From sequence record OR844765: a stretch of 64,000 bases of DNA; one strand, 5' to 3'. The notes beneath the pieces are model-generated. The model had not been told where the DNA came from. It worked only from the letters and a program-made list of their open reading frames with translations, and did no database searches. Origin of the DNA: Escherichia phage ECO111 5-P. A program made the position numbers and the translations under genes. Below, one piece after another: positions 17,484 to 17,552 of this stretch (position 1 is the stretch's first letter; each line of letters opens with the position of its first letter).

Positions 17484-17511
17484 TTACAAACTCTTGAGAG
17501 CAGAGTATAAT
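17484..17511 (+). promoter_or_regulatory. early promoter (TTTACA, 16 bp, TATAAT) with GAGAGCA/TGCTCTC inverted repeat; near-duplicate of the cassette at 48025
   Basis: aatttacaaactcttgagagcagagtataatgctctc. Confidence 0.6.
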
Positions 17512-17552
17512 GCTCTCATCGGATAATAAACCACCAATTGAAAGGTAATAAT

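Follow-up and report, generated by a model that had tools for sequence, protein, structure and literature searches.

Stem-loop promoter cassettes repeated before unrelated early genes of an RB69-like phage and their probable part in gene shuffling

How do two almost identical promoters come to lie about 30 kb apart in one phage genome, in front of genes that are unrelated to each other? The question was raised by the promoters at 17484 and 48025 of a stretch of 64,000 nucleotides (nt) from Escherichia phage ECO111 5-P (sequence record OR844765), which is called the window below. The original prediction held that these units, a second promoter pair (39103 and 40122) and three similar terminators had been distributed by short-homology recombination moving promoter-gene modules. 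Judged from the sequence, the units are most probably regulatory cassettes of the promoter-early stem-loop (PeSL) type in a T4-like (Mosigvirus) phage, which would shuffle genes and are accompanied by GC-rich intrinsic terminators. They are approx. 60-100 nt long and consist of an A-rich tract, a T4-type early promoter (GTTTAC, a 17-18 nt spacer and TAnnnT), a stem-loop and a Shine-Dalgarno leader. The mechanism is already published (2010 and 2014; PMC2839356, PMC4122927), and what is described here is its RB69-like Mosigvirus instance.

Megablast assigned the window to Mosigvirus, the genus of RB69-group T4-like phages, with 95-97% identity to many records, none of them identical. From approx. 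12.9 kb to 56 kb every gene is on the + strand, and this part is the early region of T-even phages, with the gene order (RB69 annotation) internal-protein/tRNA genes, e, denV, regB, vs, tk, rI, nrdC genes, nrdD/G, 55.x, 47, 46, 45 and 44. By the same annotation the 17484 site lies between frd.3 and e.6 and the 48025 site between RB69ORF075c and 55.2 (the two copies of cassette A), and 39103 is upstream of nrdC.5 and 40122 upstream of nrdC.3 (cassette B). In BLASTP comparisons e.6, 55.2, nrdC.5 and nrdC.3 fell into separate clusters at E 1e-4, so the genes flanked by the repeated units are unrelated, as had been supposed. Tandem duplication of a promoter with its gene was rejected as the source of 39103/40122, since nrdC.6,.5,.3,.10 and.11 have no BLASTP similarity.

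Positions 17469-17530 and 48011-48072 were identical at 54 of 62 bases in an ungapped alignment (BLAST E-value 4e-12), and the strings quoted for the two promoters were present at their places, so their near-identity at a distance of some 30 kb is confirmed. When the 62-mer was compared with the rest of the window on both strands, 17.3 +/- 3.5 bases matched on average and the next-best site reached 34/62. Among the 253 pairs formed by 23 promoters, 17482/48024 ranked at the top (85% identity, median 47%), and it was still first when both hexamers were masked (86% vs a median of 43%). Thus the likeness exceeds what the shared promoter consensus would give. The two copies are the following.

17469..17530, + strand: first copy of cassette A, a predicted early promoter for e.6 whose -10 is enclosed by a stem-loop (sigma-70 11/12, fold, covariation; RB69 annotation); A-rich tract upstream, -35 TTTACA at 17483-17488, -10 TATAAT at 17506-17511, stem arms TGAGAGCA (17495-17502) and TGCTCTCA (17511-17518), conserved GGATAATAAA at 17521-17530, e.6 ATG at 17553.
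48011..48072, + strand: second copy of cassette A, a predicted early promoter for 55.2 (sigma-70 10/12, fold); -35 TATACA at 48025-48030, -10 at 48048-48053, stem 48037-48043 / 48054-48060 including GAGAGA (48038-48043) and TCTCTC (48054-48059), GGATAATAAA at 48063-48072, 55.2 ATG at 48091.

The layout of cassette A is an A-tract, (T/A)T(T/A)ACA, AACTCTT, a 6-8 bp stem with TATAAT in its loop, the 3' arm, 2-3 nt and GGATAATAAA. The stem has 8 bp in copy 1 (RNA fold -13.8 kcal/mol, z -3.9) and 7 bp in copy 2 (-8.5 kcal/mol, z -1.2), and the stem difference between the copies is compensatory, a C-G pair being replaced by A-T (GAGAGC/GCTCTC vs GAGAGA/TCTCTC). T4 was rejected as a reference for the two sites, since its e.6 promoter has a spacer unrelated to cassette A and no stem, and between 55.3 and 55.2 it has no promoter, only a remnant of GGATAATAAA.

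Public viral contigs of IMG/VR were scanned with only ACAAACTCTT and GAGTATAAT fixed and both arms left free, and 31 T4-like copies of cassette A and one unrelated match were obtained. The covariation set consisted of 18 distinct cassette A sequences from at least three genera in a gapless alignment. In the 7-pair stem 99.2% of the cells were paired and 4/7 pairs were changed on both sides; none of 500 shuffles reached the observed covariation score, and sliding the partner by 1-3 columns lowered the pairing to 37-52%. By these results the hairpin is under selection. The stem cells of the 18 sequences contained 14 G.U or U.G combinations and zero A.C. Since G.U is tolerated and A.C is absent, and the opposite strand would have A.C mismatches, the structure matters on the sense strand. 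This asymmetry argues against a double-stranded palindromic operator and leaves for the hairpin a function in a single strand, probably at the RNA level. By its sequence the hairpin would act most simply in RNA read through from upstream, the predicted transcription start of the cassette itself being downstream of the 5' arm.

A further motif, GGA(T/G)nA(T/C)AAA, was present in all 18 distinct copies of cassette A, though the search pattern had left it free. It is located 2-3 nt past the 3' arm, approximately at the predicted transcription start, and T4 retains it as the end of the 55.3 open reading frame (ORF), despite having no promoter there.

If the cassettes take part in gene exchange, traces of it should be seen between close relatives. 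Ten Mosigvirus genomes (RB69, PTK, NBG1, SF, mar005p1, TH58, EP02SG, MRostami-2023e, BEU50 and PhAPEC2) were chained to the window over the whole early region, using an overlap-tolerant chain of BLAST segments. With breakpoints taken as BLAST segment ends (approx. +/-10 nt) and events counted without correction for shared ancestry, 57 distinct events with 79 distinct breakpoints were obtained. The 26 cassette cores make up 4.4% of the region and contained 17 of the 79 breakpoints (binomial p=4.5e-8), and among the gene junctions breaks were found at 15/23 of the cassette-bearing and 26/76 of the other ones (Fisher p=0.008, odds ratio 3.6). The alignment thus revealed the cassette-bounded insertions and deletions (indels) that had been looked for in related phages. 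At these junctions two copies of a repeat surround a segment in one genome and a single copy stands in the genome without the segment. Two copies versus one, with 29-104 nt homology, is the signature of recombination between repeats. The homology was 29-32 nt at terminators, 30-65 nt at promoters, 104 nt where promoter and internal-protein targeting sequence were combined and approx. 5 nt at 47731/48027.

One module lies between terminators.

16550..16582, + strand: intrinsic-terminator-like copy 1; stem 16551-16572, GAAA loop, T-run.
32168..32196, + strand: terminator copy 2, on the left side of the DUF7338 module.
32229..32786, + strand: DUF7338 gene, 185 amino acids, between two terminator copies.
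32791..32826, + strand: terminator copy 3, on the right side of the DUF7338 module; the fold has a perfect stem of 12 bp, and promoter cassette 32830 comes directly after the terminator.

The three terminators with the common GCCCC..GAAA..GGGGC stem were present as the original prediction described them: GCCCCTTCCGAAAGGTTGGGGC followed by a T-run stands at 16551-16577 and 32169-32195, and GCCCCAACCGAAAGGTTGGGGC followed by T6 at 32792-32819. They fold at -16.0, -15.1 and -22.5 kcal/mol (z -2.5, -2.9 and -6.0 for 16550, 32169 and 32792, respectively) and by their sequence have the form of putative intrinsic terminators, that is, a GC-rich hairpin with the T-run directly after it on the transcribed strand. 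The copy at 32789-32816 was the top match of the terminator scan, which did not pick up those at 16551 and 32169, in which there is a 2x2 T.T internal loop. Sites homologous to the window terminators are annotated as terminators in PhAPEC2. The DUF7338 segment (32196..32791), flanked by the 29-nt terminator repeat, was absent in 8/10 relatives; only PTK and TH58 have it. A DUF7338 gene was found also in the Dhakavirus JS10, at the locus equivalent to 16550, again between terminator copies, and both of these carry the same compensatory change (GGCCC...GGGCC). At the 16550 site itself the relatives have insertions of 0.5-1.7 kb, some of them flanked by repeats of the terminator unit: PTK, TH58, EP02SG and BEU50 carry approx. 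510 nt at the 16551 terminator between two terminator copies (32-nt homology), and PhAPEC2 has two genes there, with three terminators separating them. Plain intrinsic terminators also serve as flanking repeats.

Between promoter cassettes the following units are concerned.

16983..17042, + strand: cassette related to B, stem CACCA-agga-TGGTG, which together with 17196-17254 brackets ORF 17043-17207.
35591..35919, + strand: ORF 35664-35882 with a promoter cassette on either side (-35 at 35607 and 35885).
47724..47784, + strand: promoter-like cassette before the RB69ORF075c homolog (47785-48024); weak -10, surrounded by a 14-bp stem (47731-47744 / 47751-47764); fold -21.6 kcal/mol, z -5.2.

ORF 17043-17207, between cassettes 16983 and 17196 (30-59 nt homology), was absent in SF and PhAPEC2, and ORF 35664-35882, between cassettes 35607 and 35885 (65-nt homology), was absent in three relatives and replaced in four. 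Between 12948 and 13324 there is an internal-protein unit, and here the 104-nt homology comprises the promoter and the common capsid-targeting sequence. Cassette A itself was also involved: PhAPEC2 is without 47731..48027, i.e. everything between the -35 hexamers of 47724 and 48024, and a single promoter is left before 55.2. JS10 and T4 also have no homolog of the RB69ORF075c gene between the 47724 and 48024 cassettes; T4 additionally is without the 55.2 promoter core, the right breakpoint being just 5' of TTGGATAATAAA. A replacement in TH58 ends at 17477, which is the left edge of the 17484 cassette. Taken together, the cassette-bounded indels, the junction homology of 5-104 nt and the DUF7338 gene at two loci support the predicted movement of promoter-gene modules by short-homology recombination.

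The comparison of cassette copies gave evidence of another kind. In the window, NBG1, mar005p1, MRostami and BEU50 the core at the 55.2 site reads GAGAGA-tgag-TATAAT-TCTCTC-gtt. In PTK and PhAPEC2 it reads GAGAGC-agag-TATAAT-GCTCTC-att, and so matches the e.6-site core at all four linked differences. The presence of these four linked e.6-type bases at the 55.2 site is direct evidence that the cassette A copies recombine. The 55.2 site of TH58 is a hybrid, GAGAGC-agag-TATAAT-TCTCTC, which has the 5' arm and loop of the e.6 type and the 3' arm of the 55.2 type, with one pair broken; a conversion tract seems to have ended inside the loop. On sequence grounds the cores at 55.2 are best read as patches copied between cassettes 30 kb apart, where shared ancestry of PTK and PhAPEC2 is possible. 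Cassette A is present at both e.6 and 55.2 also in JS10. For this phage the idea that the A copies of one genome simply evolve in concert is unsupported, since the 55.2 copy of JS10 resembles the Mosigvirus copies more than it resembles the e.6 copy of JS10.

The genes which follow the cassettes vary between phages. In the IMG/VR copies cassette A precedes seven protein families (e.6, 55.2, a family of 148 amino acids, two families of 160 amino acids and two singletons), and cassette B precedes three (nrdC.3, nrdC.5 and one family of 160 amino acids). One 160-amino-acid family has cassette A in some phages and cassette B in others. In related genomes a cassette A of 58 nt, identical throughout and placed at one locus behind the same upstream flank, precedes three genes with different starts (two families at E 1e-4), and in one IMG/VR contig (L045) a different gene stands upstream of the same e.6 cassette.

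Cassette B is less conspicuous. The sequences at 39103 and 40122 have 27 identical bases in common, i.e. ACAACCAAGGATGGTTGGAGTATAAT and one more, which confirms the predicted common string; a single base separates their -35 hexamers (TGTACA vs TTTACA), and the pair was ninth of the 253.

39103..39157, + strand: cassette B copy 1, predicted nrdC.5 promoter (sigma-70 10/12); -35 TGTACA at 39103-39108, -10 at 39126-39131, stem between -35 and -10, CAACCA (39107-39112) / TGGTTG (39117-39122).
40123..40179, + strand: cassette B copy 2, predicted nrdC.3 promoter (sigma-70 11/12); -35 TTTACA at 40123-40128, -10 at 40146-40151, stem 40127-40132 / 40137-40142.

Copy 2 carries a promoter annotation in phage NBG1. 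Cassette B (39103 and 40122, and more loosely 16983) is characterized by a 5-6 bp stem with an AGGA loop between -35 and -10. The stems at 39103 and 40122 have 6 bp, and their z of about -0.7 to -1.0 is weak when taken alone. A degenerate scan gave 107 loci, mostly by chance, of which only those with paired arms and T4-like context were kept; the arms found were CAACCA/TGGTTG, CATCCA/TGGATG and CTTCCA/TGGAGG.

The two pairs belong to a larger set.

12948..48072, + strand throughout: 23 early-promoter cassettes (position-weight-matrix scan of both strands; stems), with -35 starts at 12948, 13324, 13652, 16611, 16983, 17196, 17482, 20057, 21998, 25024, 25765, 28577, 32830, 33279, 35607, 35885, 37463, 39102, 40122, 42507, 46596, 47724 and 48024.

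The weight matrix was derived from the obvious promoters, and rescanning of both strands gave 22 sites, all on the + strand; the 23rd (47724) was added by eye. The scan found no cassette on the - strand and none in the flanking structural and replication genes. The cassettes are intergenic, beginning at the upstream stop codon and ending with the Shine-Dalgarno sequence and start codon of the gene. In 12 of the 23, stems of 7-14 bp span the -10 hexamer, and the mean folding energy of the set was -9.2 kcal/mol, compared with -5.9 kcal/mol in random windows of the same region (p=0.005). A search of the whole window against Rfam 15 at the gathering score matched two tRNAs only (15155-15334) and no cassette.

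The way in which such units would exchange genes can be outlined as follows. The cassettes are dispersed repeats between unrelated small genes, and their copies are end points of insertions, deletions and replacements. The homologous-recombination machinery of the phage would use the short common sequences as 'linkers', and with linkers as recombination sites a gene would move together with its promoter or terminator and land between genes. The hairpin, in the sense-strand RNA of read-through transcripts, may serve as an attenuator or insulator.

Several findings weigh against this interpretation. Every one of the 7 Mosigvirus relatives searched had the named promoter pairs, two copies each, at the same four orthologous sites, so these particular promoter copies have not moved recently. 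The same cassettes at the same sites had been regarded beforehand as unfavourable to shuffling if cassette-bounded indels were lacking too; the first is true of both named pairs, and the second is untrue, since several such indels were found. The breakpoint enrichment is real but moderate, considering the resolution of the BLAST segment ends and the uncorrected ancestry, and 62 of the 79 breakpoints lie outside the cassette cores. Moreover, the borders of transcription units are places where indels can persist anyway, so the enrichment is no proof that the cassettes caused them. At least two insertions, both specific to the window, are explained by homing-endonuclease genes. At 42087-42117 and 42691-42745 there are insertions of 285 nt and 549 nt in relatives, flanked by direct repeats of 31 nt and 55 nt, and these repeats were rejected as regulatory cassettes, because they are coding-sequence ends; they are a second, non-PeSL type of repeat-bounded indel. 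There is no U-run after the cassette A hairpin, which is thus not a canonical terminator. A generic sigma-70 scan found no promoter-like excess over shuffles (76 vs 70.9 and 72 vs 67.8 expected); such a scan is uninformative in AT-rich DNA, and the matrix derived from the window was used for this reason. The shuffling interpretation therefore comes with three caveats, namely that the named pairs are ancient and positionally stable in the genus, that the cassettes explain only a fraction of the indels and that the mechanism had been published already.

The same observations could be explained by an old duplication, the likeness of the copies being kept by selection on promoter strength or structure, with no role in recombination and with indels that are merely harmless at these places. 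The four sites shared by 7/7 relatives, the presence of cassette A at e.6 and 55.2 already in JS10, the position of most breakpoints outside the cores and the modest junction enrichment (odds ratio 3.6, p=0.008) are in line with this explanation, which we consider improbable all the same: junctions with two copies against one and 29-104 nt of homology are a signature of recombination, four linked e.6-core bases occur at the 55.2 site of PTK and PhAPEC2, the hairpin of TH58 is a hybrid, and one gene family stands under cassette A or B depending on the phage.

A more far-reaching possibility is that cassette A is a discrete mobile unit of approx. 60 nt, whose hairpin would be a recombination substrate: it would fold as a single strand, as integron attC sites do, and a dedicated function of the phage would act on it in place of general homologous recombination. 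Alternatively, the hairpin may be a new RNA-level insulator which stops read-through without a U-tract. The parts of such a unit may be the spacer ACAAACTCTT, the covarying stem which holds the -10 in its loop and the GGA(T/G)nAnAAA motif. We regard this as a rather remote prospect. It is very unlikely that the inverted repeat around the -10 is a palindromic operator for a DNA-binding protein of the phage or the host, and that the likeness came from a common regulator and not from mobility. A palindrome with the -10 at its centre is a classic arrangement for a repressor, and cassette A is conserved across genera, including the unexplained motif just past the stem. However, the arms vary freely with the pairing kept, the strand asymmetry (G.T 14 times on the sense strand, A.C never) would be lacking in a double-stranded palindrome, and other promoters of the same genome have unrelated palindromes (TAGGACTA/TAGTCCTA, AGGATGAT/ATCATCCT and GATAGGAAGA/TCTTCCTATC). 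Finally, chance or convergent likeness of two strong promoters has a practically negligible probability, for although an A-tract, -35, -10 and Shine-Dalgarno sequence are generic features of both and AT-rich phage DNA is rich in promoter-like strings, it is refuted by the masked-hexamer ranking, by 54/62 against a genome-wide next-best of 34/62 and by the BLAST E-value.

Some further features of the early region were noted. The first of the two endonuclease insertions (21339-21995) is an HNH homing-endonuclease gene (phrog_374, E 1.9e-59) between a gene ending at 21342 and the cassette at 21998. It was absent in nine relatives, with 16 nt in its place in seven and an unrelated 285 nt in NBG1 and MRostami; in BEU50 the position is inside a larger deletion of 4.4 kb. 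The second (15350-15886) is a putative endonuclease gene of the T5orf172/MUG113 type (GIY-YIG-like) directly after tRNA-Arg, absent in 10/10 relatives, nine of which have 18 nt in its place. The 245-amino-acid ORF at 9213-9950, between genes 4 and 2, has a GIY...YIG-like N-terminus and, by its sequence, probably encodes a Seg-like homing endonuclease; a 716-nt segment is absent here in RB69, NBG1 and mar005p1. At 19157-19169 the window is without 250 nt inside e.3 that other relatives carry (in BEU50 a larger deletion runs across the position), which looks like a window-specific internal deletion truncating e.3, and a promoter-like GTTTAC N18 TATAAT stands at the deletion junction. Relative to window positions 18495-22859, 4.4 kb are missing in BEU50, from e.5 to the RB69ORF132c homolog, with a junction overlap of only approx. 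8 nt.

At 28577-28640 and 25024-25090 CTCCTC-like spacer sequences pair with the downstream Shine-Dalgarno GAGGAG (28577: -21.6 kcal/mol, z -4.7; 25024: -19.1 kcal/mol, z -3.3), and weaker forms were seen at 32830-32892 and 16611-16672. By this pairing the ribosome-binding site would be hidden in read-through RNA and free in transcripts from the cassette's own promoter. The late-promoter arrangement of T4 e, soc and 49 resembles the pairing at 28577 and 25024. Six genes (starts at 12995-13042, 13386-13415, 24741-24770, 25501-25530, 25825-25854 and 26165-26194) begin with the same coding sequence, ATGAAAAC(N)TAT..GA(A/G)TTTAT (MKTYQEFIAE-like). It is the capsid-targeting sequence of T-even internal head proteins, and the arrays show several indels and replacements among the relatives.

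The analysis gives independent quantitative support, from a genus outside the original papers, for the exchange of small accessory genes via short regulatory 'linkers', and it bears on how therapeutic and environmental T4-like phages acquire host-adaptation genes. The additions are modest: the strand-asymmetric covariation, the cross-genus catalogue of genes behind cassettes A and B, the terminator-flanked DUF7338 gene at two loci and the conversion tract between e.6 and 55.2. No new question is opened by them, and a specialist on PeSLs would not be surprised.

PeSLs were defined in RB49 and phi1 by Arbiol et al. 2010 (PMC2839356), who published five subclasses that differ in where the stem lies; in one it is 'between -35 and -10', in another 'overlapping -10'. 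In these phages promoter and attenuator activity was shown, mini-circles were detected and 10 of 14 differential ORFs adjoined a PeSL; one of the stem-loops lowered reporter expression as strongly as rrnB T1 (PMC2839356). The concept was widened to PST/T4 (TTTACW N17 TAYWAT) and nt-1/KVP40 by Comeau et al. 2014 (PMC4122927). For RB69, 57 early promoters had been predicted by Nolan et al. 2006. RB69 and Mosigvirus have 0 mentions in PMC4122927, and a description of RB69-group cassettes as PeSLs was not found in PMC2839356 or PMC4122927.

The cassettes of the window have all the defining sequence features of PeSLs. They are composite intergenic units with an AT-rich tract, -35 and -10, a stem-loop, a Shine-Dalgarno sequence and a start codon; the stem lies over the -10 (cassette A) or between -35 and -10 (cassette B), as in the published subclasses; dozens of copies are concentrated in variable early regions, upstream of small genes whose function is unknown; close relatives differ by indels and replacements whose ends fall in the units or next to them; and the PST/T4 consensus fits the promoters of the window. 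They differ in their stems, which are not of the RB49 G(n)...C(n) type and only loosely like the AGNA...TCNT of PST, and in that the activities and mini-circles of RB49/phi1 are experimental, whereas those of the window cassettes are predicted from the sequence. The internal-protein loci of T-even phages (Repoila et al. 1994), which were linked with the PeSL idea already in PMC2839356, are similar in having an early promoter and a conserved leader, with MKTYQEFIAE repeated before unrelated coding sequences; in the window such arrays are found at 12948-13720 and 24741-26500, and indels end in them. There, however, the homology runs into the coding sequence and the shuffling is confined to these loci, whereas the 17484/48025 and 39103/40122 pairs have no common coding sequence. 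In the morons of lambdoid phages (Hendrix et al. 2000, via PMC2839356) a single gene travels with its own transcription signals, like the DUF7338 gene between its terminators, but morons are thought to arise by illegitimate insertion and their signals are not the vehicle, whereas here the flanking signals are the junction homology. Integron attC sites, a comparison drawn in PMC2839356, likewise bound small genes with imperfect inverted repeats foldable on one strand, and circular intermediates were proposed; in contrast, the cassettes of the window carry their own promoters, an integrase or other dedicated recombinase was not found with them, though no search was aimed at one, and their junction homology fits general recombination.

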